The position numbers were made by a program, and so were the translations under genes. Below are positions 1 to 32,982 of a DNA stretch of 34,489 nucleotides, piece after piece. Under the pieces are notes generated by a model. The model had not been told where the DNA came from, searched no databases, and saw only the letters and a list, made by a program, of their open reading frames with translations. Origin of the DNA: a virus (taxonomy: Duplodnaviria > Caudoviricetes); the IMG/VR virus record IMGVR_UViG_3300027627_000015, positions 1 through 34,489 of that record; one strand, 5' to 3'. The number at the start of each line of letters is the position of its first letter. The stretch's first letter is position 1.

Positions 1-333
1 AGCCGAGCGACCTACGCTGCGTTGTTTGCAGTTACGTCCACGACTTTCGGTGTTGGTGACGGCTCTACCACATTCAATCTGCCTAATCTTAGAGGCGAGT
101 TTGTTCGAGGCTGGGACAATGGGCGCGGCGTTGATGCTAGTCGTGCGTTTGGTTCAGCGCAGGCGGACGAATTGAAAGCCCACACTCATTCAGTTTACGA
201 GCCTGTCCCGGGCTCTACTCAGGCATATGCAGGCGGTTACGCTGGTCAGATTCACGTTCAGGTGACTGGAAGCACTGGTGGCGTGGAAACCCGCCCACGC
301 AACATCGCTCTGCTTTACTGCATCAAGACTTAA
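1..333 (+). CDS. Tail fiber protein with phage tail-collar domain (5' truncated)
   Basis: Frame open from base 1: SRATYAALF...FGVGDGSTTFNLPNLRGEFVRGWD...ETRPRNIALLYCIK, the tail-collar signature. Confidence 0.92.
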   Translation, partial: SRATYAALFAVTSTTFGVGDGSTTFNLPNLRGEFVRGWDNGRGVDASRAFGSAQADELKAHTHSVYEPVPGSTQAYAGGYAGQIHVQVTGSTGGVETRPRNIALLYCIKT

Positions 334-334
334 T

Positions 335-2074
335 ATGCCCGCCCCACTGTTCAACGAGTTGCTCGACGACCCGCTCATGCTGGATGCGGCGACCGATTTC
401 CGTGGCGGGGCCAACAGTTCCGTCGCGGCGCACCTCCTGCTGCCGGGGGAGTACGCATGGAGCCAGAACTGCACCATAGACCCTAGCGGAGGACTGGCGA
501 CGCGCGGCGGGACTGAGCAAGTTACCGTAGCAGCTAACTGTACCCGGATACTCCCGGTGGCCATTACCAACGTCGGTGCGATGTATCTTTTCACCGGCGC
601 AGCAACCTCGCGGCACACAGGGCAAGTCAGTTCGGCGAACCCTGCGCCGACGCTCCTCCAAGCCGACTTCGCCAACCATACCTTGGTTGCGGGCGGTGGC
701 CGCGCCTACATTGTCAGTAATAACAACGTCCACGAATATGACGGAGTCTCGGCGTACCTCCTTCGGCGACTGGAAGTGACTTTAAGTTCCGGCGGCAGTG
801 GCTACGCAACCGCCCCCGCCGTGACCGTGACTCCCGCCGTGGGCAACGCCCCCGTCGAAGCTGCTGTGGTGGAGACGACGCTCGGCTCAGGAGCCAGTGC
901 GGGACAAGTCGTGGCCATCAATGTCATCAACCCCGGCCGAGGGTACGTAGGGACACCCACACTGGCAATTGCCGCCCCCGGCTCGGGCACTACAGCCACG
1001 GCGACGCCCACGCTGCGTGTGCCGCCCACGGGGGCGCTCGGAATATGGCACACGAACCGCCTGTTCATCGCGAACGAGGACACACTTTCTGTGTCAGATT
1101 TCTTCGACCCCGGTTGGTTCGCCGCCGGGAGCAGCCTGCGAGTGGGTGGCGACGGACATCCCATCACCGGACTCAAGAGCTGGGATAATTACAACCTCCT
1201 TGTGTTCAAGGCTCAGTCGGTCTGGCTCATCAACACCGACCCACAACTCACGGTGGCGAACTGGGGCGTGGAGAAGGTCAGCAGCACGTTGGGCTGCGCG
1301 GCCAACCGTACGGCGATACAGGTTGGCGCGGATGTCTGGTGGCTGTCCTCGGACGGCGTGGTGTCCCTCCGCCGAATGCTGCAAGAGACGCAGCGCGAGG
1401 TGTCCGTCGCCATCAGCCTCCCAATTCAATCTTACCTTTCCCGCGTCAACTGGTCTGCGGCCTCGTTGTCCTGCGCGGAGTTCTTTGACAACAAGGTATT
1501 CTTTGCGCTCCCCTTGGATGGTGCGACCGCACCGTCACACCTCTTTGTCTATGACACACGGCACCAGCGGTGGGTCGGAGAGTGGTTGGGGCTTCCTGTG
1601 CGAGATATGTCGGCGACTGTGCTCGACGGCCACTCCCAGCTCATCATGCTCCTCGCCAACGGAATCGTGGTGCGGCATCACCCGACTGAAGTAACGGACT
1701 TGGGTGCGGCCATTTTTACGACGATAGACCTCCGAGGGTTCAGCTTCAACGACCCGACGTTGCCGAAGACGCTGCTCGGCATCATCGCGGAGTTCAACGA
1801 AAGTACGTCCGACGCGGAGTTCTGGACGCGGGCGGATGAAGGTGTATTCGAGATGCGGCTCGCACTGGACGCCACCTCGCGCCCGATTCCGCTGCTCCCG
1901 GAGCCAGTGCCTTTCGTCCTCAATCTTCCGGGCACCCTGACGGTGGCCCGCACGTTCCCCGGCTTGGGGTCGTTCCACTACCTCCAAGTGCGTGTCCTAT
2001 CAAATGTGGGGCATCTGAGCGTTAGAGCCTTGAAGCTCACCGGGTTCGCCGATAACGTAGATTTGACTCGATGA
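335..2074 (+). CDS. Tail nozzle / packaged-DNA stabilisation protein (P22 gp10 / T7 gp12-like)
   Basis: ATG at 335 directly after the upstream stop; ~579 aa beta-rich protein (LLVFKAQSVWLI, TLGCAANRT, VWWLSSDGV, FVYDTRHQRW); located before the ejection genes. Confidence 0.72.
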   Translation: MPAPLFNELLDDPLMLDAATDFRGGANSSVAAHLLLPGEYAWSQNCTIDPSGGLATRGGTEQVTVAANCTRILPVAITNVGAMYLFTGAATSRHTGQVSSANPAPTLLQADFANHTLVAGGGRAYIVSNNNVHEYDGVSAYLLRRLEVTLSSGGSGYATAPAVTVTPAVGNAPVEAAVVETTLGSGASAGQVVAINVINPGRGYVGTPTLAIAAPGSGTTATATPTLRVPPTGALGIWHTNRLFIANEDTLSVSDFFDPGWFAAGSSLRVGGDGHPITGLKSWDNYNLLVFKAQSVWLINTDPQLTVANWGVEKVSSTLGCAANRTAIQVGADVWWLSSDGVVSLRRMLQETQREVSVAISLPIQSYLSRVNWSAASLSCAEFFDNKVFFALPLDGATAPSHLFVYDTRHQRWVGEWLGLPVRDMSATVLDGHSQLIMLLANGIVVRHHPTEVTDLGAAIFTTIDLRGFSFNDPTLPKTLLGIIAEFNESTSDAEFWTRADEGVFEMRLALDATSRPIPLLPEPVPFVLNLPGTLTVARTFPGLGSFHYLQVRVLSNVGHLSVRALKLTGFADNVDLTR

Positions 2075-2472
2075 ACCTTATGACCCTTGCTGCATTTGTG
2101 AAACGGAATTATCGCCCAGCCCGACGCTGGGACGGTGCCCGCATCCTACTGTGGCTGGAGTGGTTTCGAGAAGACCGACGCCTCGCCCATGTGACGGACG
2201 ACTGCGGTCGCCTCGTCGGCATCGCCTTGGCGCGGAAACTGCCGGACCTTGCGGAAGCGGGCGACTTCTACGCGCACGACGAGGCCGCCCCGCACGTCTT
2301 CGTGGACTTGGTCATCGCCAAGAAACCCGGTGTCCTCCGTGTCCTGTGGGCCGCGATGGTCCACCGGTTCGGTGCGCCGGTCCGCGTGGCGTGGAAGCGC
2401 CACAAATACGACATGACGTATGCGCATGACTTTTCCCTAGTCACTAAACACCTAACCCTAAGCGAGACGTAA
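2071..2472 (+). CDS. Hypothetical virion-assembly protein, possibly GNAT-like (T7 gp13 position)
   Basis: ATGA overlap with the upstream gene; 133 aa alpha/beta pattern (GRLVGIAL, VFVDLVIA); synteny between nozzle and ejection genes. Confidence 0.5.
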   Translation: MNLMTLAAFVKRNYRPARRWDGARILLWLEWFREDRRLAHVTDDCGRLVGIALARKLPDLAEAGDFYAHDEAAPHVFVDLVIAKKPGVLRVLWAAMVHRFGAPVRVAWKRHKYDMTYAHDFSLVTKHLTLSET

Positions 2473-2473
2473 T

Positions 2474-3550
2474 ATGGGCAGCGACGAACCACCTCCGCCA
2501 CCTCCCCCGGACTACGCAGCCGCTAACCGCGCGGGCATCCTGGCCGACGTCGAGACGCTGCCTGTTCGCCGCCAAATCGAACTGGCGGCCAAGCTCGGAC
2601 AGCGCGGTTCGTACACGCTGGATGGCAAGCAGTACTCCTACGATTTCACTAACCAAGGAGACGCGGAGTTTGCCAAGCAGCAGGCCGTCACCGCGCGCCA
2701 GACCGCGATGGATGGCGCACAGAACCTATTGGACATACAGGAGAAGTACGGCCAGCGATTCCTAGACACCTCCCGCGAACAGTTGAAGGCCAGCGACCCC
2801 ATTGGCTTCGCGCTCCGGGAAGACCTCGGGCGCCGTGTGTCCGGCCAGCTTGGTGCGGGTGGCTCTGTCACTGACAGCGAGCGGCGCGGGGTGTCCCAGA
2901 ATGTCCGGGCTGTCCAGACACGGCTCGGCAACACCAACGGTGTCGCCGCAGGTGTGCAAGAAGCGTTGTCTCAAACGGATTATCAACGCGGCATCGAACA
3001 GCAACGTCTCGGTAACGCCGGTGCGTTTCTGGCGGGCACCACCCCGCTCTCCCAGTTCGGCCAGTTGCAGTCGGCTGGTGTCGGTGCCGCGCCGTACATG
3101 GCGACCGGCGTCAACGCGATTGGGCAGAATGCCAATGCCGGTCAGATGGGTACGCAGTTTGCCGCCAACGTATACGGCACACAGGGCAGCATCTACTCGG
3201 CGCAGCTACAGGCGCAGGCATCGCAGGGCAACCCGTGGATGCAAGGCTTGGGTATCGTCGCAGGTGTCGCAGGCAGCCTTGGCTCGGCAGGCATCATGGC
3301 TGGCGGCATGGCGGCAGCCGGTGGAGCCGCGAAACCATGCCACGTCGCCCGCGAGGTGTACGGCATCGACGACCCGCGCTGGATGCTGTTCCGCGACTGG
3401 TTGCTCACTGAATCCCCGGGCTGGTTCCGCGCGGCGTACATCCGGTTCGGCGAGCGGGTCGCAACGATGATTCGTCCGTTCCCGCGTGTGAAATCACTCA
3501 TCCGCCGCTGGATGGACTCTAAGATTAACCGTGCCCCGCGCACAAACTAA
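2474..3550 (+). CDS. DNA ejection/pilot protein with C-terminal CFI-box-like domain
   Basis: N-terminal PPPPPPDY, Gly/Ala/Gln-rich body, Gly/Ala hydrophobic segment, then CHVAREVYG...W..FR.WL...WF...Y...GE tail. Confidence 0.7.
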   Translation: MGSDEPPPPPPPDYAAANRAGILADVETLPVRRQIELAAKLGQRGSYTLDGKQYSYDFTNQGDAEFAKQQAVTARQTAMDGAQNLLDIQEKYGQRFLDTSREQLKASDPIGFALREDLGRRVSGQLGAGGSVTDSERRGVSQNVRAVQTRLGNTNGVAAGVQEALSQTDYQRGIEQQRLGNAGAFLAGTTPLSQFGQLQSAGVGAAPYMATGVNAIGQNANAGQMGTQFAANVYGTQGSIYSAQLQAQASQGNPWMQGLGIVAGVAGSLGSAGIMAGGMAAAGGAAKPCHVAREVYGIDDPRWMLFRDWLLTESPGWFRAAYIRFGERVATMIRPFPRVKSLIRRWMDSKINRAPRTN

Positions 3551-3559
3551 GGAGGAACT

Positions 3560-4513
3560 ATGGCAGCAGGACGAGACTTACTAGACGGGTTCCGGGCAGG
3601 CATGGAAATGGGGCGACCCATTGTCGAAGCGCGGATGCAGCAGATGTCGGACACGCGCCGAGCCAAACAGTCCAAGGATGACATGGAGCTGCACGCGAAG
3701 CTCATGGAGAAGCAGCAGGCCCAAGCGCAAGCGCACGCCGAAAAGCTACAGACTAGCGCGCAGTTAAACGCCAATTCCATGCAAGACCGGAACCTAAGTT
3801 CCGCCGAGAATCAAAACGCGCTAGCCCGCCTCGCCGACGCCACAAACAACGAGGCGAACCGTGGTGTGGCTCGTGAAGGACAGAGGATAACTGGGGTTTA
3901 TCAGGACGGGCAGCTCAGACTCGGGCAGGGGCAGTTGGACGCCACGGTGGCTAACAATGTGAGGATGGGGAAGTACCAACAAGATGCGTTGAAACTAGAC
4001 CGGGACAGACTTACAAACTCGACGGTCGAGGGAGTTGGCATGGACATCGGTAACACCCTCAACCGCATGAGCAATCTCAAGGAGATGGCGGCGGACCCCA
4101 ACGCAGACCCTCGGACCCGGCGCGTGGCCTACGACCAATACATGGGATTGCAGACTGCTATGCAGTTCAGTGCGGCAAAAGTCCACATGAACATGAACGA
4201 CCCGAACATCACCCTTGGGGATTTCACCTCGGGTATACAGTCCCTATTCAGCCCTCAAACCACCCCACCTCCCATTCTCAAGCAGGAAGACGCGATGGGT
4301 CAGACCAATTTCGGCAGATACAACGGGTTAACGGGGAAGATAGACCAAATCCCCTTCGTGCGCACTCCCGATGCGGCCACTCCCCGTGTGCCCACTCCCG
4401 GAGTGACCGGCCCTCCTGCCGCCGTAACGCCCCCCGGTAACGCGGGCGGTTGGGGCACTAAATATAACTTCAATCCGCCGCCAAAAGGTGTGGTGCCGCT
4501 CGCACCGAGGTAG
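3560..4513 (+). CDS. Putative internal virion/ejection protein
   Basis: AAGGAGG SD just upstream; N-terminal LLDGFRAGMEMG, Gln/Ala helical body, Pro-rich tail; lies between the pilot and the giant ejection gene. Confidence 0.6.
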   Translation: MAAGRDLLDGFRAGMEMGRPIVEARMQQMSDTRRAKQSKDDMELHAKLMEKQQAQAQAHAEKLQTSAQLNANSMQDRNLSSAENQNALARLADATNNEANRGVAREGQRITGVYQDGQLRLGQGQLDATVANNVRMGKYQQDALKLDRDRLTNSTVEGVGMDIGNTLNRMSNLKEMAADPNADPRTRRVAYDQYMGLQTAMQFSAAKVHMNMNDPNITLGDFTSGIQSLFSPQTTPPPILKQEDAMGQTNFGRYNGLTGKIDQIPFVRTPDAATPRVPTPGVTGPPAAVTPPGNAGGWGTKYNFNPPPKGVVPLAPR

Positions 4514-4528
4514 TCCCACCATCTGTAT

Positions 4529-7500
4529 ATGGATAAGACGCTGCTCCCTAACCCGGTTATCACTGCGTGGGCAAAGGAACGGGACGAGCTGGACGCCAGC
4601 TCGCCCAAGGGAAGTCATTGGAACGACTTCACGCCCGACATCCAGAACTCGGTGCTGACCCAGTTTGCGCAGAAGTGGCGCGACTCGAATCCGAAGAACT
4701 TGCAAGTGGATGGCTGGGCGTCTGACTTCTTCAACCGTGCCCAGCGCAAAGCCACGGAGGCGACTCCGGTGGAGGCAGCGCCAGTGCCGCAACCGAACAA
4801 CGCCACATTCGCGGGAGCCTTTCCGCCCAACCAGAACGGCCTCTCCCCGCGTCGCGCTCCGGTGACGTTCGCGCCGCGCAACTATGTCCCGCCTGACTCA
4901 GATATGCCGACGCAGTTCGGCACTCACATGGGTGGGCAATATCTCCAGTCCATCGCTGAGAAGAACGACCGCATCGCGATGTCGGCGGGTTTGGTGACGG
5001 GTCAGCTTACAGGCGAAGACCTTCAGCGCACCCTTAATGACGAGTTTGAGAACCGGAAGCTCCACCCTGAGCGGTTCCAAGAGCAGCCGGGCATCCTCCC
5101 ACGCATCGCGGGCGAGCTGTCCTACACGATTCCGGCGATGGTCGGCATGACAGTGGCCGGTGGCGGCCCTGCGGGGTTGCTCACGGCAGGTGCCCTCGAG
5201 TCCATGAGCAGCAAATTGCTCAGTCTCAAAGACAACTACTACGCGCTCCTCGACAAAGGGCTGGACCCAGCCGAAGCGTGGCAGAAGGCTGGGACTATCA
5301 GCAACATCTCCGCCGCCATCATGGGTGTGGCGTCCGCTGTTCCCATCGGCCAGACGGTGATGGCCGTCGGCGGCGGTCAAGCGACCAAAGAGACTTTGAA
5401 AATCGCGCTGGGCCAGCAACTCGGCACCAAGGCTGCGGAGAAGGTGGCCGGGTTGGCAGTAGCGAAGGGCTTCGACAATGCGGGCGCTACTGTGCTCGGT
5501 GGCGCTGCGAAAGCCCTCGGCGGGCTGTCACAGACAGGTGTGGCGAAGGTCGGCATCCTCGCGAGCATCCAAGGGGCGGAGAACCTCCTAGCCGAAGGTG
5601 CGGACATCAGCCAAGAGCGCACCCAAGGTAGTGACACCAGCGCCTATCGCGGCACGGCGGGCGAGCGATTACTTTTCGCCGGTGCAACTGGCGTCGGTAT
5701 CGGTTTTGCCCACGCGGGAGGTGCCCGCATCCTCGACCTCCGCTCCGGCAAAGTGGCCGGTGAAGAGACGGCGGCCCGCATCAACGGCGTCTTCCAGATG
5801 CTTGATGCCAACCTGCGCGGCGGTAGCGCAGCCGTGGAACAACTGGCGAAGATTAACTACGGCGACGGCCCGGGTGGCAACGCGGCCAAGTTGACCACAC
5901 AAGCCGTGTGGGACGCGGCAACCTTGGGGCAGAGCGGCTTGAAGATGACGGTCGAACCCGGCGCGCATCCCACGCAACCCGGCGCGCTCGCACAGGCGAC
6001 CCGTGACACAGTTAACTTCTACGGTAGGCTCGTCCAAGCGGATGACACCGCTAAGGTGGCGACTGTCACGCACGAAGCGGCGCACCCTTACTTTGACCAG
6101 CTTCACCCTGACGTGCAGCGGGCGGCGTTCCAGCGGTTCCAGCGTGAGCTGGGGTCAGGAGAGAGCGCCTTGTTTACCCGAGTGGAAGAGGACGGCAAGG
6201 TGCGCCTGACCACCCGTGAAGGCGTGGACCCGCAAATACTCGAGTCGTGGCAGAAAGCACTCCGCGCCACTGACCCCGAGGAGAAGGCCAAGCACACCAA
6301 CACCGCATTCCGTGAATGGTTCGCGGAGCATCTGACGTTGTCCCAGCTCGACTTTGTCTCCGGCCGAGTGAGGGCGGCGCAGGACACCTCGTTCTTCGGG
6401 TCGCTGACACGGGACATCCGCACCCGCAGCGAGTTGGTGGGCCGTGCGTTGGGCGTGCAGAACGCGCTCCTCGCTGGGTACCGCAACGTGCTGGACGCGC
6501 CGCTGCGCACCGACTACAACCCCTCTCTCACCATCGTCCGCGAAGCGATGGGCTTGAAAGAGGCTCCGGCTCCGAAAGACGCGGCTGCGGCTCCCGCTCC
6601 GACCCCCAAGGTTGCTGACCCGGCCCCAGAATCCATTGTCGGCACGGCTCCGAAAGACGCGACACCGGCCGAGCAGGCAATCTTCCTTTCCCCAGAAGCC
6701 CTCGTTGAACGTGCGAAGGGGATGTCCGTGTTTTTCAAGCCCCCTGAGTCGGCGGTTGTCGCACCCGAGTCGAAGCCGGTGGTAACGCCCGAACCCGTGT
6801 CAGTGACAGAGCCGCCTGCGGCAAAGCCAACGGCTGCTCCCGCACCGAAGCCTGAGCCGACCTTGGAAGCCACGGTTGCTAAGAAAGTGTTGAAAGCCAA
6901 GCTCAAGGCACTGGCCCCCGAGCTTCCGCCGGTCGAAATTAAGCCGGAAATTAAACAAATTGAGGCGGAACCGTCGATTGCGACCAAAGAACCTGTGGCC
7001 CAAGATGACATCGCTTCGCCGATGCCGGACGCGAAGTTCGCACCGAAGCCTGAGCCGATGTCCGGCGAGAAGTTCAAGTCCTCCCCCGAAGACCTTGGCT
7101 ACAACTACGGAGGGAAAGCCGACGCCCCGATTACCCGTGTCGGCGACCGTGTGTCATTCATACGGACGGAGACAGTGCTCAAAGACGGCAAGACCATCCA
7201 ATCCCCCCGTGGCCGTGTGGGCGGCGAGGTGGTGGGGTTCAGCCGGAACGGGCGAGTCATCGTCCAGATGCGGCAAGCGGGTACGGCGACGACGACGCAG
7301 CAACATTTCTCGGGCGCATCAAAGTTGCGGCTGGAAGCGGCTTTGCCGACGGCCGTCCCGACGGCAGCGCCGAAGAGCAAGGCCACCCGTGTCGCCGAGA
7401 CGCTGCTGGAGCGGGGCGAGGCCATCACCAACACCGAGCTGTGGCGGCTGCGCGATGCGATTGACGCTGAAATCGCTCCCCAGCGCGAGGCGAGGCGCAA

Positions 7501-10500
7501 GCTCATCGAATTTGAAGAAGGCGACCTGTCCAAACGTGGCGATGACCCGCTCGCGCCCAACCGCAGCCTGTGGCTGGCCCCCGATGGTGGCACCTATGAC
7601 GCGGAGTTCCACGGCGCGACCCCGGATGGTTCGAGTTACAGCCACGGGTTGTTCATCAAGCAGTGGGTGCGGGACCGACTTAGCCCTCGCCGTGCGGGCA
7701 AGTTCCCCGAGGCCGAAGTGGACAGTGCGCGGCGGATGAAGGCGCGGGTGGACGAGATGTTGGCGGCGGACCCGGCGCTGCGCGGTGACGCGGATGAGGA
7801 CGGCCAGTACAGCATCTTCTCCGCCGACCAAACGTGGAACCAAGCCGCGCAAGAGCGTGGCTGGGTGCGCATCAAACCGATGCCGGTCCCGACCAACCGT
7901 GCGACCATCTTCGCCGAGAGTGCTGGCGATATGTCCGCCGCGCAACGGGCCGCGCTACAACTGGCCACCGACAAGGGGATGGAGGTGCGGTACATCCGTG
8001 GCGGTGCGTTGGCCAATCGTGCGGCGTTCTCGGAGTACCGGGCGTTCGTAGACAGGGTCGGGCAGGAGGAAGGGTATCTGACGCGCCGTGGCGACCTCGT
8101 GGATGAGACGACCGTTGGGCCGAGAGGCGCGCTCTTCGTGTCGCCGAACATCCGAGAGGGCTTAAATTTCAACGACGCCGTGACCGCGCTACGCGGTGAG
8201 CGACACGCTCAAGTGCGGGCCTTCGCCGAGAAAGTGGATAAGTGGTTGCCACCCTCCGAACGCCACGATGCCATCGGCGACTGGAAGGACGGGGCGGAGA
8301 ACTCAACCGTGACCATGTACGGCCCGGATGTCCCGTACAAAGATGTGCGAGTGGCGGGAGCTTTGCTCGGCGACCACGCGCGCCAAAAGTCCGTGCTGAC
8401 GTTTCGTTCCGACCCGTTCCGAGCCAACTCGGCCCTTTACGACTTCATCCTGCCCGGCACGTTTGAAGACGCGCGGGTCATCCTGACGAGACACGGCTTT
8501 GAGCATCGAACGCTGGTTGACCACAAAGACGGTGTGCGCGTAATGTTGTTCGACAACGAGGCATCATTGGTGGATAACGTCCGAAACCTTTCTTATGAAA
8601 ATGACATCAAAATCACAAGGGTCCGTGGGTACGGCGAGTTCTTCGGAAGCAAAATCGACTCCCGCGAAGACGCCGCGAAAGTTTTCCGAGATGTCGCCGG
8701 AAGAGCAGGAGGCGGTGTTCAGCGACCCTTGCTTCGTGGACGGGACGGCCAAGGGGATGCAGTATATTTTGCCCAGCTCCGGGCAGAAGCCGAGCGCGGA
8801 GCCGTAGCCGACCTTTCCACGCGCGGCTCGCGGCGGTTCCCCGAGCGCGCCGCCGAGGGCGACCCAGACTTGAAGGACATCCGAGACAATCGTCCTGACA
8901 TAGCGGGGTACGAGACGCAGGTCATCGCCACCGGTAAGGCGGAGGCGAACATGAAGACGGACGCCGAGTTGGTCACGTCGGCCGACCGCCTCACGGACAT
9001 GGTGCAGACCGACACCGCGAAGAACTTCCTCGTATTAGACGGGTTGGAGCTGATGCAGCGAGCCTTAGCCAAAGGCGACCGCATCACCGCTGAAGGTGCG
9101 TTCGACACGATTTCAAAGGCGGGCACGACCTTCGGTCAGTTGCTTCGTCAATTCGCTGAGTTGAAAGCGACCCCCGCCCACGTCGCCGCTGTGGTGGAGA
9201 TTGGCCTCGGCAAGAAGGGGTTGATGTTGCAGCCGCACCAGAAAGCGGACCTCAAAGCCAAGCTCGACGCAGCAGACACCGCAACTGCGGCGCACTCCGC
9301 TGCGGTTGATGCCGCCTTGCTGAACCCGTCCGACGCCACATACAAGGTGGCTGAAGCGGCAGAGTCTGTCGCCCGCCGTGCCAAGCTCAATTGGGTCAGG
9401 GACTTAGAAGTGCTGCTGCCGCGCGAGAGCCTGTCGCAAGACTTCTTGTCGGTAATTCAAGGCAACTTGCTCACGCCGAAGTCGGAGCTGCGAAACTTCC
9501 TGAGCAATTACTCACGCGGAGTCATTGACCTCCCCGCGCGGACCGTCGGTGCTATGGGAGACGCTGTCTGGTCGGCCATCACCGGCACCCCTCGGACGGT
9601 GAAGATGCCGACGTTGACCGAAGGACAGTGGGTCGCTGCTGCCTCGATGCGCGCTGTCCCCGACGCGGTAGACACGCTGCTGCGTGGCCCCGGCGGCTCG
9701 GACATTCTCGGGGAGCGCATACGTGGGTTCCACCCTGTGGGTGCTTTAATCAAAGCGTTAAACGGCGACCTGCCAGTGGACATGGGCACTGGCCGTGTCC
9801 CACTGAAGCTTCGCACCGCGAAACTGGCCGAGGCGTTCTTCGGCGCGACCCCTGAGCCGATGCTCCGTGGTCTTGCGGCGTTCGACAACATCGCCAAAGC
9901 CGGTCTGCGCGCCTCCCGGATGGCGCAAGAGGTTGACCTCCGTAGCGCGGCCGAAGGCACGCGGGAATACGCGGAAGCGAAATTGATGGCGACCCGTCAA
10001 CTGAGGGCGACCGCCGAAGAGGCAGCCTTGGAAGGTACGTTCCAAAACGCCAGTGCCCCTGCGATGGCGGCCTCGGCCGTCGAAGGTATCATCCGCCGAA
10101 CCGCAGGAGAACCGGGCGTCACCGCGTTCCGCCTAATGACGAGTGTGTATCAGCGCACGCCGCTCAACGTCTTGGCGACCACGCTACCTTACCTCGTCCC
10201 ACCACTGGCGGGTGCCCAGATGGTGTACCACGCTCGGACCGGCAACCGGCGAGAAGCGGGCATTGACTTCGGTAAGTTCTGGGTCGGCACGACCATCGCC
10301 GCCATCTCTGACCTACTCCTCCGGGACGACCTCATCTCCGGTGGACCTGAGTCCGAGGAGAACCTACGCCGTCTCCGAAGCTCGGAAGACATGGGTTACT
10401 ACCGGGTCAATCTCACGGGCTTGCAGCGCAAGCTCGACGGTGGCGACGGCAAGTACCAGACTGGCGACACCTCGGTGCGCTTGGACCTCCTCGGTGTCCC

Positions 10501-11341
10501 CGGTGTCCTCCTCGGTGTCCGCGCTGACATGGCTCGCATCGATGGCAAGTCCTCGAAAAACCGGGTGGAGGGCGAACCGACTTTCAACCTCGACGTGTTC
10601 GGAGAGGTGTTGGGGATGTCACGGTTCATGGTCGAGACGACTATGTTTCAGAACGTAGGCAAAGGACTCAGAGCTGTCGCCAACGGTGAGTTCGCGGCGT
10701 ACCTCCAAAACCTGTTCCAGCAAGTTTCCGTCGTCCGTCCCGACTTCGCAAACACGGTGACGGCCATCCGCCACGCGGACCAGCCGTACCGTGTGGACCT
10801 TGCCGACCGAGGGAATGGCAAGAACGTGGTCGAGCAAGTTTGGGAAAATGTAATCAAGCACAAGAAGGGTGAGTGGGACGACTTGCCGAGGAAGCTGAAC
10901 CTGTGGGGCCAGCCGATTCCCAACGTCCCCGCTGGACGGAACCCCTACGTATACAACCTCGTCGATGTCCTGATGCCCGCGAACCAGCAGGACGCGGCGG
11001 TGACGGTCATTCGCGACGCATTCACCGCGACTGGCGACAAGGGGGTCATCCCCGGCTGGCCGAACCGCGTGCTCTCTTACAAAGACTTGCCGCAGGGAAT
11101 GTATCTCTCCGGAAAGATGTACGAGTCTTACGTCACGGCCGTGCAGGGAGCGAAGCTCGACGGGCTGAAGATGCTGATGGCGGACAAAGATTTTCAGAAG
11201 GCCGACGGCGATGCTCAGGCGAAGGCAATGCAGCGGATTTACGACCGCACCGGCGGGAAGGCCGAGCTGCGATGGCGCTACGAGCACCGCGACGAGTTGG
11301 AGGTGGAGCGCACGAAGCTCAAGGCGTTTCTAAATCGTTAG
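4529..11341 (+). CDS. Giant polyvalent DNA-ejection protein (2270 aa): zincin HExxH domain, Pro/Ala linker, KOW/SH3-like segment, WxxPDG..H..GWVR domain, SAM-lyase-like domain, helical C-terminal region
   Basis: Single long ORF ending the virion operon (T7 gp16 / P22 gp16 position). THEAAH at aa ~515-519 with EWFAE at ~596; C-terminal FQN, QRTPLNV, NLWGQPI and VIPGWP motifs resemble large polyvalent ejection proteins. Confidence 0.8.
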   Translation: MDKTLLPNPVITAWAKERDELDASSPKGSHWNDFTPDIQNSVLTQFAQKWRDSNPKNLQVDGWASDFFNRAQRKATEATPVEAAPVPQPNNATFAGAFPPNQNGLSPRRAPVTFAPRNYVPPDSDMPTQFGTHMGGQYLQSIAEKNDRIAMSAGLVTGQLTGEDLQRTLNDEFENRKLHPERFQEQPGILPRIAGELSYTIPAMVGMTVAGGGPAGLLTAGALESMSSKLLSLKDNYYALLDKGLDPAEAWQKAGTISNISAAIMGVASAVPIGQTVMAVGGGQATKETLKIALGQQLGTKAAEKVAGLAVAKGFDNAGATVLGGAAKALGGLSQTGVAKVGILASIQGAENLLAEGADISQERTQGSDTSAYRGTAGERLLFAGATGVGIGFAHAGGARILDLRSGKVAGEETAARINGVFQMLDANLRGGSAAVEQLAKINYGDGPGGNAAKLTTQAVWDAATLGQSGLKMTVEPGAHPTQPGALAQATRDTVNFYGRLVQADDTAKVATVTHEAAHPYFDQLHPDVQRAAFQRFQRELGSGESALFTRVEEDGKVRLTTREGVDPQILESWQKALRATDPEEKAKHTNTAFREWFAEHLTLSQLDFVSGRVRAAQDTSFFGSLTRDIRTRSELVGRALGVQNALLAGYRNVLDAPLRTDYNPSLTIVREAMGLKEAPAPKDAAAAPAPTPKVADPAPESIVGTAPKDATPAEQAIFLSPEALVERAKGMSVFFKPPESAVVAPESKPVVTPEPVSVTEPPAAKPTAAPAPKPEPTLEATVAKKVLKAKLKALAPELPPVEIKPEIKQIEAEPSIATKEPVAQDDIASPMPDAKFAPKPEPMSGEKFKSSPEDLGYNYGGKADAPITRVGDRVSFIRTETVLKDGKTIQSPRGRVGGEVVGFSRNGRVIVQMRQAGTATTTQQHFSGASKLRLEAALPTAVPTAAPKSKATRVAETLLERGEAITNTELWRLRDAIDAEIAPQREARRKLIEFEEGDLSKRGDDPLAPNRSLWLAPDGGTYDAEFHGATPDGSSYSHGLFIKQWVRDRLSPRRAGKFPEAEVDSARRMKARVDEMLAADPALRGDADEDGQYSIFSADQTWNQAAQERGWVRIKPMPVPTNRATIFAESAGDMSAAQRAALQLATDKGMEVRYIRGGALANRAAFSEYRAFVDRVGQEEGYLTRRGDLVDETTVGPRGALFVSPNIREGLNFNDAVTALRGERHAQVRAFAEKVDKWLPPSERHDAIGDWKDGAENSTVTMYGPDVPYKDVRVAGALLGDHARQKSVLTFRSDPFRANSALYDFILPGTFEDARVILTRHGFEHRTLVDHKDGVRVMLFDNEASLVDNVRNLSYENDIKITRVRGYGEFFGSKIDSREDAAKVFRDVAGRAGGGVQRPLLRGRDGQGDAVYFAQLRAEAERGAVADLSTRGSRRFPERAAEGDPDLKDIRDNRPDIAGYETQVIATGKAEANMKTDAELVTSADRLTDMVQTDTAKNFLVLDGLELMQRALAKGDRITAEGAFDTISKAGTTFGQLLRQFAELKATPAHVAAVVEIGLGKKGLMLQPHQKADLKAKLDAADTATAAHSAAVDAALLNPSDATYKVAEAAESVARRAKLNWVRDLEVLLPRESLSQDFLSVIQGNLLTPKSELRNFLSNYSRGVIDLPARTVGAMGDAVWSAITGTPRTVKMPTLTEGQWVAAASMRAVPDAVDTLLRGPGGSDILGERIRGFHPVGALIKALNGDLPVDMGTGRVPLKLRTAKLAEAFFGATPEPMLRGLAAFDNIAKAGLRASRMAQEVDLRSAAEGTREYAEAKLMATRQLRATAEEAALEGTFQNASAPAMAASAVEGIIRRTAGEPGVTAFRLMTSVYQRTPLNVLATTLPYLVPPLAGAQMVYHARTGNRREAGIDFGKFWVGTTIAAISDLLLRDDLISGGPESEENLRRLRSSEDMGYYRVNLTGLQRKLDGGDGKYQTGDTSVRLDLLGVPGVLLGVRADMARIDGKSSKNRVEGEPTFNLDVFGEVLGMSRFMVETTMFQNVGKGLRAVANGEFAAYLQNLFQQVSVVRPDFANTVTAIRHADQPYRVDLADRGNGKNVVEQVWENVIKHKKGEWDDLPRKLNLWGQPIPNVPAGRNPYVYNLVDVLMPANQQDAAVTVIRDAFTATGDKGVIPGWPNRVLSYKDLPQGMYLSGKMYESYVTAVQGAKLDGLKMLMADKDFQKADGDAQAKAMQRIYDRTGGKAELRWRYEHRDELEVERTKLKAFLNR
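8595..8807 (+). CDS. Putative 70-aa protein nested in the +1 frame of the giant ejection gene
   Basis: ATG in a locally AT-rich context; protein-like core KFSEMSPEEQEAVFSDPCFVDGTAKGMQYI, while the main frame turns Arg/Gly-rich over the same bases. Confidence 0.4.
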   Translation: MKMTSKSQGSVGTASSSEAKSTPAKTPRKFSEMSPEEQEAVFSDPCFVDGTAKGMQYILPSSGQKPSAEP

Positions 11342-24793: not shown

Positions 24794-24828
24794 GTTTTTC
24801 CTTTTTGGTTCGTGTTTCGGTGCATGTC

Positions 24829-26695: not shown

Positions 26696-27364
26696 GTGTC
26701 TGACGCACCTATGACGCGCCCCCGTCGGCTAAACGCGCGCAGCAAAAGCCAAACCCAGACGACTCGCCGACGCGCAACGAGCGCGATGGCAAACGCCGCG
26801 ATGCGCGCCGCAGGCGGCCCGCAACTTGGGCGGCCGACCATGCCGCTCACAGACGCCACGCGCGCTGCTGTCCTTGACAGCGTTCGCGCAGGCGCGGACC
26901 CAAACTCGGCAGCGGCCGCAGGCGGCGCGAACATCCAGACGATGCAGCGTTGGCTTGTGGATTATCCCGCATTTGCCCTTGAATATAAAAAAAGCCAAGG
27001 CGAGCACATCACTCGCACGCTCTCGGAACTACGCGAGCTGCCCGCAGGACGATGGCAAGCGCGAGCGTGGGAACTCGAGCGCCTGTATCCCGAGCGCTTC
27101 GGAACGGGGCACCGACCCGACCAAACGAGCACGGTGCGCGTGGAGATTTCGGCACAGATTTGTGCACAGATGGCGGATTCGTGGAAGACGTTCAAAGCCA
27201 AAGTGATTGATGCAGAGGATGTTACACATCCTGATTCGCACAATATCAATTATATTCAATTGCCACAGAAATCGAAGGCAAAGCCTTCCAGTGCACATAG
27301 TTCCAGAGACAAAAATGAGGATGCCCCACCGAAGGTGTCGAAGGAGCCGGAGGGCGACGAATGA
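26696..27364 (+). CDS. terS: Terminase small subunit (start uncertain: 26696/26711/26786/26840)
   Basis: HTH-like TMQRWL..YPAF and WQARAWELERLYPERFG motif; directly upstream of terL. Confidence 0.75.
   Translation: MSDAPMTRPRRLNARSKSQTQTTRRRATSAMANAAMRAAGGPQLGRPTMPLTDATRAAVLDSVRAGADPNSAAAAGGANIQTMQRWLVDYPAFALEYKKSQGEHITRTLSELRELPAGRWQARAWELERLYPERFGTGHRPDQTSTVRVEISAQICAQMADSWKTFKAKVIDAEDVTHPDSHNINYIQLPQKSKAKPSSAHSSRDKNEDAPPKVSKEPEGDE
27233..27260 (+). other. dif-like XerC/XerD recombination site
   Basis: GATTCGCACAA-TATCAA-TTATATTCAAT versus E. coli dif GGTGCGCATAA-TGTATA-TTATGTTAAAT (8/11 and 9/11 arm matches, 6-bp spacer). Confidence 0.65.
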
Positions 27365-28905
27365 AGCGCTCACCGAAGGTGTCGGCCTCAAGTGACGCAG
27401 CATCACCAGCGGCCGCAACTGCGGGTACCGTGTCAGTGCCAGCGCCATCGTGGGCCAGAGACGGGGGGGCGGGGGGAGGAGGGGGGCCACACGTTCGTAG
27501 TGCCTATCTTACAATGGGCGCGGAACAAAAGGCTTCACCGCTGGCAGGTACCCCGGGCTGGTTCTGCCGAGAGATTCTGCGAATCAAGCCGCACGGATGG
27601 CAGGACAAGGTTCTATGGGATGTCGCCGTTGGCCAACGTCCGGTCGCGCTATGTGCGGCCAACGGTTCTGGCAAGACGCAGATGGTGGCAGCGCCGCTCA
27701 TCCTGTGGCACTGCGCAGTGTTTCCAAAGTCGCAGGTCGTAACGACAGCCGGTGTGTATCGGCAGGTCAAGGAGCAGCTCTGGACGGCGCTGCGCCAGTC
27801 AAAGGAACGCCTTGGGGCTTCGTGGGACATCAACGCAACTGACCTGCACGCTCCAAACGGTAGCCGGGCCGTTGGCTTTTCTACAGACGACCCCGGAAAG
27901 TTCGAGGGCTGGCACAACGACAATTTGTTGATGATTGTCGATGAGGCCAAAAGCGTGCCGGATGAGATTTTCCAAGCCATCGAGAGGTGTCAGCCGACCC
28001 GACTGTTGCTCATGTCCAGCGCGGGCACAAGCGACGGGGAGTTTGCGGCGGCGTTTTCCACGCGGCGTCGGTTCTACTCGCAGCACAAGGTGACGGCGAT
28101 GGATTGTCCACACCTCAAGGACAAGTGGATTGCCGCTCAGATTGAGAAGTGGGGACGCGACCACCCGCTGGTGCGTTCTATGATTTTCTCGGAGTTCTCC
28201 GAATCGAACTCTGGAGCGCAGGTCATCACGCGGACGGCGGTGGCAAAGTGCTTGGAGTCGCCCCCGGAGTACGTGCATGGCCCGACGGTCGCGTTCATCG
28301 ACTGGGCCGCTGGCGGCGATGAGAACGCGATTGCCATTGTGAAGGGCAACCGCCTGTTCAAGCTCATCTGCTGGCGGGACAAGGACACCATGCAGGCCGC
28401 AGCGCGCGCCATCGCGGAGCTGCATCGCTGGGAGGTGCCTGCGGGCGGTGTGTTCGCGGACGACAGTGGCTTGGGGCATCCCATCAACGATGCGTTGGCC
28501 AAGGCGGGCGTGCAGGTCCGGCGTGTCATGAACAACGCGAAAGCGTGGGACGAGGAGCACTACATGAACCTCGGCGCGGAGCTGTGGTACACGGCGGCGC
28601 GGCGCATTGAGCACCGAGAGGTGTCCTTGCTGGATGACGAAGTGTTGCTGGAGCAGTTGACCGGGCGGCGGCAGATTGTCACGCCGAACGGACGGCTGGC
28701 GTTGGAGCGGAAGGAGGACATGCGGTCGCGAGGGATGTCCTCGCCCGACCGCGCGGATGCGGTTTTGGCTGCGATTGCGATTGCTCATCTTACACGTGGT
28801 GGATACTTTGAGTCAGATGCAATGGATGACAGTGATACTGTGGTCACAGATGAGTCGGTGTCCCGGCACGCGCTGGAGCACGACGGATTCTACGCTGGAG
28901 CTTAA
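27361..28905 (+). CDS. terL: Terminase large subunit (true start may be ATG 27514)
   Basis: WQ motif, AANGSGKT Walker A, MIVDEAK Walker B, RNase H-like FIDWAAGGDEN and SPDRADA. Confidence 0.93.
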   Translation: MKRSPKVSASSDAASPAAATAGTVSVPAPSWARDGGAGGGGGPHVRSAYLTMGAEQKASPLAGTPGWFCREILRIKPHGWQDKVLWDVAVGQRPVALCAANGSGKTQMVAAPLILWHCAVFPKSQVVTTAGVYRQVKEQLWTALRQSKERLGASWDINATDLHAPNGSRAVGFSTDDPGKFEGWHNDNLLMIVDEAKSVPDEIFQAIERCQPTRLLLMSSAGTSDGEFAAAFSTRRRFYSQHKVTAMDCPHLKDKWIAAQIEKWGRDHPLVRSMIFSEFSESNSGAQVITRTAVAKCLESPPEYVHGPTVAFIDWAAGGDENAIAIVKGNRLFKLICWRDKDTMQAAARAIAELHRWEVPAGGVFADDSGLGHPINDALAKAGVQVRRVMNNAKAWDEEHYMNLGAELWYTAARRIEHREVSLLDDEVLLEQLTGRRQIVTPNGRLALERKEDMRSRGMSSPDRADAVLAAIAIAHLTRGGYFESDAMDDSDTVVTDESVSRHALEHDGFYAGA

Positions 28906-30831
28906 ATGAACTGCGAACTTTCTTCCCTTCCGCTGCGAGAGAAGCTGACCGCGCTTGATACGCGCGTCCGCAACGCGCTGTCCGCCCGGCTACTCTGGGA
29001 GAACCGGCAGCAGATGTACTACAAGCTGCGCCACAACGGCCTTGAGCGCGTAAATAAGCCGTTCCCCAACGCCGCCAATATGAATTGGCCGCTGTCGGAC
29101 ATGATGGTGGAGAAGATTAAGCCGTACTACGTGCAGCAAGTGTTCGCGAATGAGCTGTTGGCGAATTTCTACGCGCTTCGCCGCGAGCTTTCCCCTTTTA
29201 ACAACGGCGCTGCACAGTGGTTTGACCACCGCTTGCGACAGCGCACAAATTTCGAGTTCGAGATTATTGCCGTCGCGGACTATATGTTGATGACCGGCAA
29301 AGGCATCCTCAAGGTTTTGTGGGACGAGACGACGAAGCAGGTCAAGTTCGACTGCGTGGACCCGCTCTATTTCATCGTGCCGACCCACACGGGCACGCTA
29401 GACGAGGCCGACTGGTGCGTGCAAGTCCATCAAGTCAGCCCGGAGTCTTACCGCCGCAACTCGAACTGGAATCAGGACGAGACGCTCATCAAGCGAATGT
29501 TGGAGACGGCTTCGCTGACCCGCGAAGGCGCGGCCACTGACAAGCTCTGGCGCGAAGGTCTGACGCACGGCGCGGATGACCAGCAGATTGTCCTGTGGGA
29601 AGTGTACTGGCGCGATGCAGACAACAAAGTCCGCACGCTGGTCATGTCCCCCGTTGTCCCGGATGTGTTGGTCCGCGAAGAGCAGGAGATGCCGTACGAC
29701 CACGGTCAACTCCCCTACGTCGATTTCAGTTCCGAAGTGAAGGACAAAGGTTTCTACAGTCCGCGCGGTATCCCGGAGCGCGTGGCCTCGTTGCAGATGT
29801 CACTGACACGCCTGTGGAACGAGAAGTTGGACGCGCTGTCGTTTTACATGAAGCCCATCTTCGTCTCTGATTCCCCGTTGGGGAACGCAGGGTCGTTGCA
29901 GCTTCGTCCCGGCTCGGTGCTCCCGTACGCACTCCGCAAGGTAGACATGGGGCAGCCCCCGTTGGCGTGGGACAGCGAAATGGGCAACCATCGCGCCACG
30001 GCGGAGCAGCTCATCGGCGTGCCGGACGCGGGCCTGACGCAGCAGCTTCACTCGAACGAGCGCCGCACCGCGTCCGAGGTGAACCTTATCGGAAGCTTGA
30101 TGTCGCAGGTGGTGGACTTGCGCAGCCGCGTGTTCCGCCGCTCGCTCGCCTCGGTGTTCCGCCAGTCGTGGCAGCTTTACGTGCAGTACGACAGCGCCTC
30201 GCTCGATTATTTCTTCCGCAACGAACTGCTGGCGCTGCCGCCCGCCGCATTGTCGGACGACTACCGCATCGAACCGCTGGCCAGCGCGGACAACTTCAAC
30301 AAGCAGTTCGTCTACCAGAAAAAGGTGACGCGCTTTCAGATGTTGCAGAACAACCCGTTCGTTAACCAAGGCGAGCTGACGCGCGACCTTATTGCTGCGG
30401 ATGACCCGCAGGACGTGAAGCGCCTCTTCATGGACAACCAGTCGCAGAGCCTCGACCAAGCGGAAGACCAAGCCGGGGAGATTGGCCGTATGCTCATCGG
30501 CTTCCCGTCGCAGGTGAAGCCGGTGGACGACGATGCCGCGCACCTCACTGTGGTTCGTCAATTCGTTGAGCGCCGCCTCACGACCGGCGAGGCAATGTCC
30601 GCAGAACTAGCGACGCTCCTGCTGAATCACAGCAACCTCCACTTCCGCCAGATGATGCAGAAAGACCCGGAGAAGGCGGCTCAGTTGGAGCCGTCGATGC
30701 AACAGATGGCGCAGTTGCTTGGTAAGATTGTCGGGCAGGAGCAGCAACGGCAACAGGAGATGCAGCAGCAGCAGCAAGCGATGCAGCAGCAGGGACAGGG
30801 AATGCCGATGCCGCAGGGAATGCCGATATGA
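28906..30831 (+). CDS. Portal protein
   Basis: 641 aa directly after terL; GKGILKV.W, FYSPRGI, RTASEV motifs; Gln/Met-rich tail typical of podovirus portals. Confidence 0.88.
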   Translation: MNCELSSLPLREKLTALDTRVRNALSARLLWENRQQMYYKLRHNGLERVNKPFPNAANMNWPLSDMMVEKIKPYYVQQVFANELLANFYALRRELSPFNNGAAQWFDHRLRQRTNFEFEIIAVADYMLMTGKGILKVLWDETTKQVKFDCVDPLYFIVPTHTGTLDEADWCVQVHQVSPESYRRNSNWNQDETLIKRMLETASLTREGAATDKLWREGLTHGADDQQIVLWEVYWRDADNKVRTLVMSPVVPDVLVREEQEMPYDHGQLPYVDFSSEVKDKGFYSPRGIPERVASLQMSLTRLWNEKLDALSFYMKPIFVSDSPLGNAGSLQLRPGSVLPYALRKVDMGQPPLAWDSEMGNHRATAEQLIGVPDAGLTQQLHSNERRTASEVNLIGSLMSQVVDLRSRVFRRSLASVFRQSWQLYVQYDSASLDYFFRNELLALPPAALSDDYRIEPLASADNFNKQFVYQKKVTRFQMLQNNPFVNQGELTRDLIAADDPQDVKRLFMDNQSQSLDQAEDQAGEIGRMLIGFPSQVKPVDDDAAHLTVVRQFVERRLTTGEAMSAELATLLLNHSNLHFRQMMQKDPEKAAQLEPSMQQMAQLLGKIVGQEQQRQQEMQQQQQAMQQQGQGMPMPQGMPI

Positions 30832-31070
30832 CCGAGCCGCTCGACAAGAACTCGGTCGAATGGATTGTCAGTGACATCAACACTAAACTGACTGCGCACG
30901 TCGAAGACAGCCGCGTGTTCCGCCAACGGCTGGACACCCGGCTTGACATGCAGCACGAACGTATTGATGTCCTCGAAAACGAGCGCCAGCGGTTGCTCGG
31001 GTTCTCCGTGGGCCTCGGCGCTGCCGCCGGTGGCCTCGGCGCATGGCTCTACCGTATTTTCCTCCCCTGA
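30828..31070 (+). CDS. Small coiled-coil plus C-terminal TM protein (holin/antiholin-like)
   Basis: RIDVLENER followed by hydrophobic LLGFSVGLGAAAGGLGAWLY; ATGA overlap with the portal stop. Confidence 0.6.
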   Translation: MTEPLDKNSVEWIVSDINTKLTAHVEDSRVFRQRLDTRLDMQHERIDVLENERQRLLGFSVGLGAAAGGLGAWLYRIFLP

Positions 31071-31088
31071 CCCCAACCCAAACACCAC

Positions 31089-31274
31089 ATGAACAAAACA
31101 CAAATACTCGGACTCGTTCGACACCTGCTGACGTTCGGCGCTGGCTTTCTCATCGCCAAGGGTCAGCTCGACGATGCGAACGCGCAGAACATCATCGGTG
31201 CCGTCATCGCCGTCATTGGCGGCGTCTGGTCCGCCACCTCCCCGGAGAAGGCTGCGCCTGCTCCGCAGCCCTGA
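31089..31274 (+). CDS. Putative two-TM holin
   Basis: ILGLVRHLLTFGAGFLIAKG...IIGAVIAVIGGVWS; A/C-rich leader. Confidence 0.75.
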   Translation: MNKTQILGLVRHLLTFGAGFLIAKGQLDDANAQNIIGAVIAVIGGVWSATSPEKAAPAPQP

Positions 31275-31282
31275 GCAGCCCT

Positions 31283-31540
31283 GTGACGCTCGCTGCCGCC
31301 ATTGTGATGCTGCTCGGCGGAGTGGTGCCGCTCATCGTCTGGATGATACGGCGGCACGTCGAACGCTCCGCCACGCCGCAGGAAACACTGAAACGCTATG
31401 AAGAAGACGCTCGTAAGGTCATCGCTCAACGCGATGTTGACGGGGTTAATCGCGCTCTGGATGACCGGCTGCGTGCATTACACCGTAATTCCGTCGGACC
31501 GGCTGGTGGTGAGGCTGCGAGCGGGCCAGACCGCCCCTAA
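31283..31540 (+). CDS. Putative inner-membrane spanin (Rz-like)
   Basis: GTG start, N-terminal TM (LAAAIVMLLGGVVPLIVWMI), then a charged helix; overlaps a lipoprotein gene in another frame. Confidence 0.55.
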   Translation: MTLAAAIVMLLGGVVPLIVWMIRRHVERSATPQETLKRYEEDARKVIAQRDVDGVNRALDDRLRALHRNSVGPAGGEAASGPDRP

Positions 31541-31631
31541 AGACGGGTACCTCGTGCCGGATGCACGGATGTTGGAAATACTGGACGAGTTGGGCCGCCG
31601 CGAGGTGGAAACACGTCCTCCACAGAAATAG
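31398..31631 (+). CDS. Putative outer-membrane spanin lipoprotein (Rz1-like)
   Basis: MKK..hydrophobic LTGLIALW..MTGC lipobox; +1-frame overlap with the Rz-like gene. Confidence 0.6.
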   Translation: MKKTLVRSSLNAMLTGLIALWMTGCVHYTVIPSDRLVVRLRAGQTAPKDGYLVPDARMLEILDELGRREVETRPPQK

Positions 31632-31655
31632 TTTGGCAGACCCTATACTACCGAT

Positions 31656-31961
31656 ATGTTCAATTTCATAAGACTATGTGTGTCAGTCATACAGAGAATG
31701 CGGCAGGCACTTCGTTACGGCGATTTGGCTGCGTGGACGGAGGGGGACGCGACCGCGTGGGCGGCGTTTCTCCGGTCCCCCGCCGGGCAGAAGCTTGACA
31801 CCATGATGACCCACCTTGTTTTAGACACGATGCAGGAGGCGGTGACGCGCAAAGGTACGGAATACGACGTGGGCACGTCGAACGGCGTCCGCCAGACGTG
31901 GGTCCAGCTCAAGACACTTTCGGCAATCGGAGTCGCGCCAGAAGACGATTCTAAAGAATGA
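31656..31961 (+). CDS. Hypothetical protein preceding the scaffold gene
   Basis: 101 aa with FLRSPAGQKL motif; ATGA overlap with the scaffold gene. Confidence 0.7.
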   Translation: MFNFIRLCVSVIQRMRQALRYGDLAAWTEGDATAWAAFLRSPAGQKLDTMMTHLVLDTMQEAVTRKGTEYDVGTSNGVRQTWVQLKTLSAIGVAPEDDSKE

Positions 31962-32959: not shown

Positions 32960-32982
32960 CCGCAGACTAGGAAACTAAAAAT

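Follow-up and report, generated by a model that had tools for sequence, protein, structure and literature searches.

The largest protein encoded by this phage contains a conserved module, at aa ~1200-1391, whose modelled fold and invariant residues resemble those of phage SAM lyases. In our main reading, to which we give roughly even odds (about 0.5), the module cleaves SAM, probably travels in the capsid and enters the cell together with the DNA, and weakens SAM-dependent defences. Homology of the fold to SAM lyases is by itself highly probable, and delivery of the giant protein in the virion, judged from gene position and fusions, is probable. To our knowledge, the phage SAM lyases characterised so far are small proteins encoded on their own, and that of T3 is the product of the first early gene. 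Literature searches, judged mostly from their listings and reaching few subscription papers, gave no report of a SAM lyase within a virion protein. The family described here amounts to 752 clusters at 50% identity, mostly within large proteins, many of them tied to virions. If active, it would be a case of counter-defence by SAM chemistry that arrives pre-loaded, and would provide the enzyme in a single-chain form; the answer to whether its substrate is SAM or a SAM-derived signal may lead to an as yet undescribed defence pathway.

Results

The phage and its giant protein

The window, meaning the whole stretch of DNA analysed, is a linear IMG/VR record of 34,489 bases, 82% complete. The sequencing runs that contained at least half of its words (8 of the 22 listed, with 4 flagged as a possible source) were lake or freshwater metagenomes. 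Genes for a terminase, a portal-like protein, a major capsid protein, a DNA polymerase A, a helicase and an integrase are present, and the phage is probably temperate and short-tailed. The features used below are the following.

278..4513, + strand: genes upstream in the same block, encoding a tail/connector-like protein of 598 aa, then proteins of 133, 358 and 317 aa without family; their order resembles a podovirus ejection-gene cluster
4529..11341, + strand: giant protein of 2270 aa, probable gp16-like ejection or polyvalent protein, last gene of the structural block
6071..6085, + strand: HExxH zincin-type motif, aa 515-519 of the giant protein (motif match)
8126..8416, + strand: unit 1 of the module, aa 1200-1296, a SAM-lyase-like ferredoxin fold with predicted active-site residues (model, fold searches, alignments)
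8276..8305, + strand: G1250-x-W1252-x-D1254-G-A-E1257-N-S1259 with a short T-loop, predicted equivalents of Svi3-3 Gly56, Tyr58, Glu69 and Ser71 (alignments; residue roles from PMC7877911)
8384..8389, + strand: Q1286-K1287, the Gln aligned with T3 Q94 and Svi3-3 Gln104, the Lys standing at T3 D95 and Svi3-3 Glu105 (alignments)
8417..8647, + strand: unit 2, aa 1297-1373, predicted to be another ferredoxin-like unit but lacking the Gly/Glu/Gln set, with conserved G1323, R/H1327-T/S1328, D1342 and G1367
8648..8701, + strand: helix that ends the module and contains the near-invariant R1379 (model, alignment)
8966..11338, + strand: C-terminal scaffold region of the giant protein, LPD38-like (language-model features, a lead only)
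27361..33933, + strand: genes of this phage for the terminase large subunit, a portal-like/head-tail adaptor and the major capsid protein

The giant protein is the largest open reading frame and closes a small cluster behind the tail genes, as expected of a gp16-like protein under the gene-order rule given in a paper on the podovirus ejection-gene cluster (PMC8954989). As a whole it matched nothing in Pfam or PHROG, and no PHROG match connected it to a known ejection protein. A hydropathy scan gave no strong transmembrane segment (maximum 1.39, with weak hydrophobic stretches). For the C-terminal scaffold, language-model features gave PF18857 as the nearest named cluster (score 0.96, the recognition value being under the mark). 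HExxH was also found in 4 of the 5 relatives that were checked (P0153, P0003, P0201 and P0202). Following an idea in PMC5512222, such a zincin-type motif could serve to cleave the polyprotein and release the module.

Two further segments of the protein were noted. The one directly before the module (aa ~1000-1190, nt 7529-8110) is aromatic-rich, gave no Pfam or PHROG match, is missing in P0201 and is partly common to P0003; it is probably another cassette. The other, aa 812-934 (nt ~6960-7340), is small, beta-rich by eye, 40% identical to its counterpart in P0003, and flanked by Pro/Ala/Lys/Glu-rich linkers. Elsewhere in the window, on the minus strand at nt 23102-26169, lie two long open reading frames of 599 and 446 aa without Pfam match, the second with a weak ATPase match.

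Extent and conservation of the module

The original prediction had described a domain like the T3 SAM lyase at 8126..8650. Its motifs are in frame in ORF 4529-11341, E1257 at nt 8297 and Q1286 at nt 8384, and a conserved module does occupy this interval, but it ends near aa 1391 (nt 8701) and includes R1379, kept in 148 of 152 relatives. It therefore spans nt 8126-8701, ~190 residues. The original prediction had missed a second ferredoxin-like unit and the size of the family. Among 50%-identity representatives, a query with aa 1195-1391 retrieved 752 proteins at E<=0.001 and 410 at 1e-10, numbers that set the conserved module well apart from chance.

Conservation was read from 152 aligned relatives, namely the 150 best hits plus 2 from another search. 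G1250 and Q1286 were kept in all 152, W1252 and E1257 in 151, S/T1259 in 147, D1254 in 146 and K1287 in 143, with G1255 within 146-152. E1257 and Q1286 are the residues proposed to match the conserved Glu and Gln of T3, and a profile alignment placed them, weakly, in register with the lyase Glu and Gln (E 0.0022, probability 13%). The 'RH' resemblance to the RHRHMV of T3 did not survive, as this position is variable in the family (R in 40%, then Q in 56% or H in 41%).

Unit 1 is the most conserved part of the module: in 100-residue windows, identity was 100% versus 89% with the closest relative and 59% versus 45% with the next one. Between strains, the counts of silent and changed codons were 1 and 0 for unit 1, 7 and 5 for the remainder of the module, and 5 and 10 for the linker that follows. 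These small numbers cover 31 of the 34 variant sites, as three adjacent ones and a 3-base deletion were excluded. A single contig from another study spans 7800-8641 with 11 differences, so the junction between the upstream part of the gene and the module is not an assembly artefact. Units 1 and 2 occurred together in 232 of 232 sequences, found with a full-length query, which favours co-occurrence.

In RNA run X15, one contig matched from 8595 onward and carried 94 unlike bases before that point, hinting at a related strain with a differing sequence in, or in place of, the module. Cover of the stretch by one RNA run was patchy and was not counted as evidence of expression. Two proteins, P0027 and P0086, each had two matched module stretches.

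Predicted fold

The AlphaFold2 model, made with 45 sequences, reached a pLDDT of 96.0 and a pTM of 0.90, and consists of two beta-alpha-beta-beta-alpha-beta units and a closing helix; unit 1 alone, folded without an alignment, gave a pLDDT of 39. Fold searches used the whole two-unit model. In a Foldseek-independent (VIA) search of 48,161 chains, the T3 lyase 7ock_L came first (Z 8.5, rmsd 3.7, 124 residues). The other chains at Z of at least 8 were an AcrB-type pump (Z 8.4, rmsd 3.5, 155 residues) and Svi3-3 6zm9 (Z 8.2, rmsd 3.4, 106 residues), and the SAM-AMP lyase 9gab was seventh (Z 6.6, rmsd 3.7, 94 residues). A second structure search again put the T3 lyase first (8bb1_E, Z 9.1, rmsd 3.1, 119 residues), Svi3-3 scoring 8.2-8.6 over both searches. 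These Z values are middling, and the AcrB pore domains are effectively level with the lyases (Z 8.4-8.7); among the top rows identity was highest for the lyases, 11-16% versus 5-8% for AcrB-type chains. Many lower rows of the two VIA searches were occupied by ACT-type regulatory domains (Z 5.6-7.0). With Foldseek the lyases stood at ranks 46 and 47 (probability 1.0, E 0.006). In BFVD, giant phage proteins without a name gave the best matches (TMq up to 0.67); small Autographiviridae proteins came next, and an annotated SAM hydrolase was among the hits.

The model has a ferredoxin-like, PII-related core. The SAM-lyase-like fold that had been proposed is supported by a pLDDT-96 model and by the first place of the T3 lyase at Z 8.5-9.1, with modest statistics and ties with AcrB. 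We regard this modelled fold call as good, not decisive by itself. The Svi3-3 alignment (105-106 pairs) extends over model residues 1-183, beginning where unit 1 begins and reaching the last strand; these ranges suggest that unit 2 is an insertion ahead of the last strand.

Active-site residues

In Svi3-3 numbering, Gly56, Glu69 and Gln104 are described in PMC7877911 as the only strictly conserved residues of the lyases. Tyr58 contacts the sulfonium; the Glu105/D95 position is conservatively substituted, and E105Q costs only threefold (same source). All three strict residues are present in the module, in a register that comes from a weak profile alignment and not from coordinates, and the aromatic residue for the sulfonium is W1252 (151/152 relatives). 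At the position after the Gln, where the lyases have an acidic residue, Lys stands in 143/152. No clear match was seen in the module for the lyase-invariant Asn (T3 N27), nor did its consensus contain the MetK-binding tail and QTH motif of T3.

The statistics of this register depended on the lyases compared. Against T3-only profiles, hhalign gave E 0.1-0.3, not better than reversed controls. With divergent gp0.3-like proteins added the E value was 0.012 and then 0.0022 over 91 columns with a probability of 12.8%, G1250, W1252, E1257 and Q1286 falling in register with Gly, Tyr, Glu and Gln. The added proteins came from among the fold hits and relatives of these, and the short-loop ones, which improved the score, are known by annotation alone; phiR8-01 g002 was left out as unalignable. 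When columns were shuffled, the observed score was reached in 0 of 60 trials with the short-loop set and in 4 of 60 with the full lyase set of 21 proteins. An HMM of the lyase set scored at least 5 bits on 24 of 153 unit 1 sequences, versus 2 reversed ones, none in three shuffles and none for unit 2; on the query itself it gave -0.6 bits.

The spacing of the motifs had been thought similar to that of T3. It is not: 7 residues separate Gly from Glu in the module, versus 13 in T3. The shorter distance equals that in gp0.3-like proteins with a short loop from Melnykvirinae, LIMEzero and LIMElight, and is found in 11 of the 21 proteins of the lyase set, two of which read E-N-S at the same place. 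The Melnykvirinae gp0.3-like proteins (L162:3840-4217, L169-L176) have a T-loop six residues shorter than that of T3; several of them, and T3 gp0.3 as well, carry the misleading RefSeq label of SAM-dependent methyltransferase. A 209-aa hypothetical protein of a Campylobacter phage (L167:163-792) also aligns with SAM lyases, with Gln-Lys at the expected catalytic Glu.

The best fold match is T3 gp0.3 (PDB 8BB1, 7OCK; PF23780; phrog_2226), whose G55, Y57, E68, T70 and Q94 align with G1250, W1252, E1257, S1259 and Q1286. T3 gp0.3 is a stand-alone early protein of 152 aa, whereas the module is embedded in late-block proteins. The T3 protein has a T-loop six residues longer, D95 instead of Lys and a MetK-binding N-terminal tail, and lacks the extra ferredoxin-like unit. 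Svi3-3 (PDB 6ZM9, 6ZNB) has the Gly56/Tyr58/Glu69/Ser71/Gln104 pattern in common with the module; it differs by its Glu105, where the module has Lys, and is a homotrimer with sites between subunits.

PF23780 was the Pfam family most commonly matched by members (9/70, all under the cut-off, best E 0.0099; 1/45 in another member set, E 0.0079), and the query gave no match to it at the curated cut-off. The module query had no match in Pfam, in PDB sequences or in cultured phage records, and no Pfam LPD model matches the module. Profile searches returned nothing relevant. PHROGs and NCBIfam gave no convincing match, one member reaching phrog_2226, the T3 family, at E 0.029, and ESM Atlas gave unnamed clusters only (<=0.82). 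We class the module as one that would work like a SAM lyase, and as a distant variant rather than a PF23780 member.

Unit 2 compared directly with unit 1 gave E 0.08-0.13, and with the lyase set E 0.03 over 52 columns, 2 of 40 shuffles scoring as high. These values are no more than suggestive of unit 2 being a duplicate of unit 1. T1328 was considered as a stand-in for Svi3-3 Ser50, and the register of the alignment between unit 2 and the lyase set gave it no support.

Host proteins of the family

Among the 150 best hits, 99 proteins exceed 600 aa and 26 have at most 300 aa, some of the latter probably fragments; at 80 viral loci the corresponding numbers are 68 and 3. L035:9929-10687 is an example of a short stand-alone relative. 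Domains were scanned in 35 of the 99 long hits (portal 6, MuF 2, LPD38 1, ART-PolyVal 4, Acb1 2, zeta toxin 3, none 14) and in 29 of the 80 host ORFs (portal 5, MuF 1, zeta toxin 8, ART-PolyVal 5, Acb1 1, none 8). A portal or MuF domain was thus part of the same polypeptide as the module in 8/35 and 6/29 scanned hosts, the two sets overlapping. Named virion genes were nearby in 11 of the 15 loci whose neighbours were scanned. Bacterial assemblies provided ten module loci, and the 8 scanned included 2 portal fusions and 2 with Acb1. One module-bearing locus, L158, is part of a 351-kb Acidobacteria contig.

Disparate domains within one polypeptide, among virion genes and with portal or MuF fusions, are what is expected of polyvalent proteins; in the giant protein itself, HExxH, the module and the LPD38-like end are in one chain. 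The hosts resemble the phage polyvalent proteins of Iyer et al. 2017 (PMC5512222), described there as multi-domain, late-gene, portal/MuF-fused proteins with zincin, ART, 2H/Acb1, zeta-toxin and LPD domains; the word 'samase' has 0 occurrences in the text of that paper. Gene order and the portal/MuF fusions of relatives support association with the virion indirectly.

The module is a swappable cassette, present or absent among orthologues. P0201, a full-length orthologue matching the giant protein at both ends, is without it, and it is found in 2 of 11 relatives of the C-terminal scaffold. A locus search with this scaffold found no locus. At one locus, a DNA methyltransferase-like gene (L039:3652-4575) lies directly 3' of the module gene, a SAM consumer adjoining a predicted SAM destroyer; like the lack of a strong transmembrane segment in the giant protein, this counts against the main reading.

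Proposed mechanism, dose and alternatives

The module is predicted to cleave SAM into methylthioadenosine (MTA) and homoserine lactone by a unimolecular lyase route. As in Svi3-3, E1257 and Q1286 would grip the methionine end of SAM, W1252 would stack on the sulfonium and G1250 would leave space for the ribose. The oligomeric state varies among lyases, Svi3-3 being a trimer and the T3 enzyme a monomeric barrel in its complex with MetK, which it also binds (10.1101/2023.02.27.530186). Much as the C-terminal strands of T3 close its barrel, unit 2 may close the pocket within one chain, so that the enzyme could work while embedded in a long polypeptide. The giant protein would travel in the virion and enter the cell with the DNA, carrying a ready-made anti-defence enzyme.

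The benefit of an injected module is the weak step of this mechanism. We took the SAM pool as 180 micromolar in 1 femtolitre. Published values are 9.5 turnovers per second for Svi3-3 (PMC7877911), 4-6 copies of gp16 for T7 (PMC8954989), and 12-30 copies for P22. At this rate and with this assumed pool size, 4-30 copies would turn over the pool in an estimated 6-48 min without resynthesis; at an assumed 100 per second, the estimate becomes 0.6-4.5 min. In addition, the Svi3-3 and ORF1 lyases are reported to leave BREX unaffected (10.1101/2023.02.27.530186). Both points weaken the proposal that SAM removal by the protein takes effect as the DNA enters, and they imply that the enzyme is much faster, that host pools are small, or that the target is a scarce SAM-derived signal.

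The last option, with the same fold and chemistry directed at an immune signal made from SAM, for example SAM-AMP, and scarce enough for few injected copies to clear, we judge possible though unlikely. Low copy number opposes bulk SAM depletion, and the signal-degrading Acb1 shares polypeptides with the module (2/35, 1/29 and 2/8 in the sets above). The SAM-AMP lyase (PDB 9GAB) and a phage AcrIIIB4 candidate have the fold core, Glu and Gln in common with the module, 9gab matching unit 1 at Z 6.6. According to PMC12255297, this Glu and Gln are all that the SAM-AMP lyase retains of the SAM lyase residues, and the form from a phage acted on SAM-AMP, not on SAM. However, T3 and Svi3-3 outscore 9gab, and the SAM-AMP lyases, which are trimers acting on SAM-AMP, have a longer T-loop, of 13 residues with W64 and C66; the module has neither the long loop nor the conserved Cys. 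SAM-AMP systems are moreover a minority of type III CRISPR, a share that sits poorly with a 752-cluster family. A wider form of this idea is put forward tentatively, with the odds against it: a large single-chain SAM-lyase family, its degenerate second fold copy replacing the trimer neighbour, would be carried as routine pre-loaded cargo by the portal, MuF and ejection proteins of environmental phages, and because only few copies enter the cell it would be aimed not at the SAM pool but at a scarce SAM-derived defence signal, either SAM-AMP or a still undescribed one.

It is improbable that the module has no catalytic role and, like PII or ACT domains, binds or senses SAM, MTA or an amino acid, regulating neighbouring domains or serving as a sponge. 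The ACT-type rows and the Lys after Gln are consistent with it, but the few residues needed by the lyase mechanism (PMC7877911) are kept, and freely varying partners suit a self-contained activity. Nor do we expect an active SAM lyase whose useful work comes late, during bulk expression of the structural operon, with delivery at entry being incidental. The copy-number estimate would fit, as would the short stand-alone members (3 of the 80 loci, at most 300 aa, two of them among head genes); repeated fusion to portal, MuF and LPD38 is needless for a late cytoplasmic role. That an unrelated tandem-ferredoxin module carries lyase-like motifs by chance is very improbable, despite the AcrB tie and the weak sequence statistics, given four functional positions in register, invariant residues clustering exactly there, and a DUF3293 region that repeats the motif order by eye.

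This last region (PF11697), at residues 884-970 of P0205, a distant relative of the scaffold that has it in place of the module, reads Asn, Gly-x-Tyr, Glu-Asn-Ser and Gln in the order of the SAM lyases and, from Gly-x-Tyr on, of the module, from which it differs in being a single unit. DUF3293 is not among the Pfam families shown for the module, and no paper within the literature searched names it. Judged by eye from these motifs, DUF3293 may be a single-unit SAM-lyase family.
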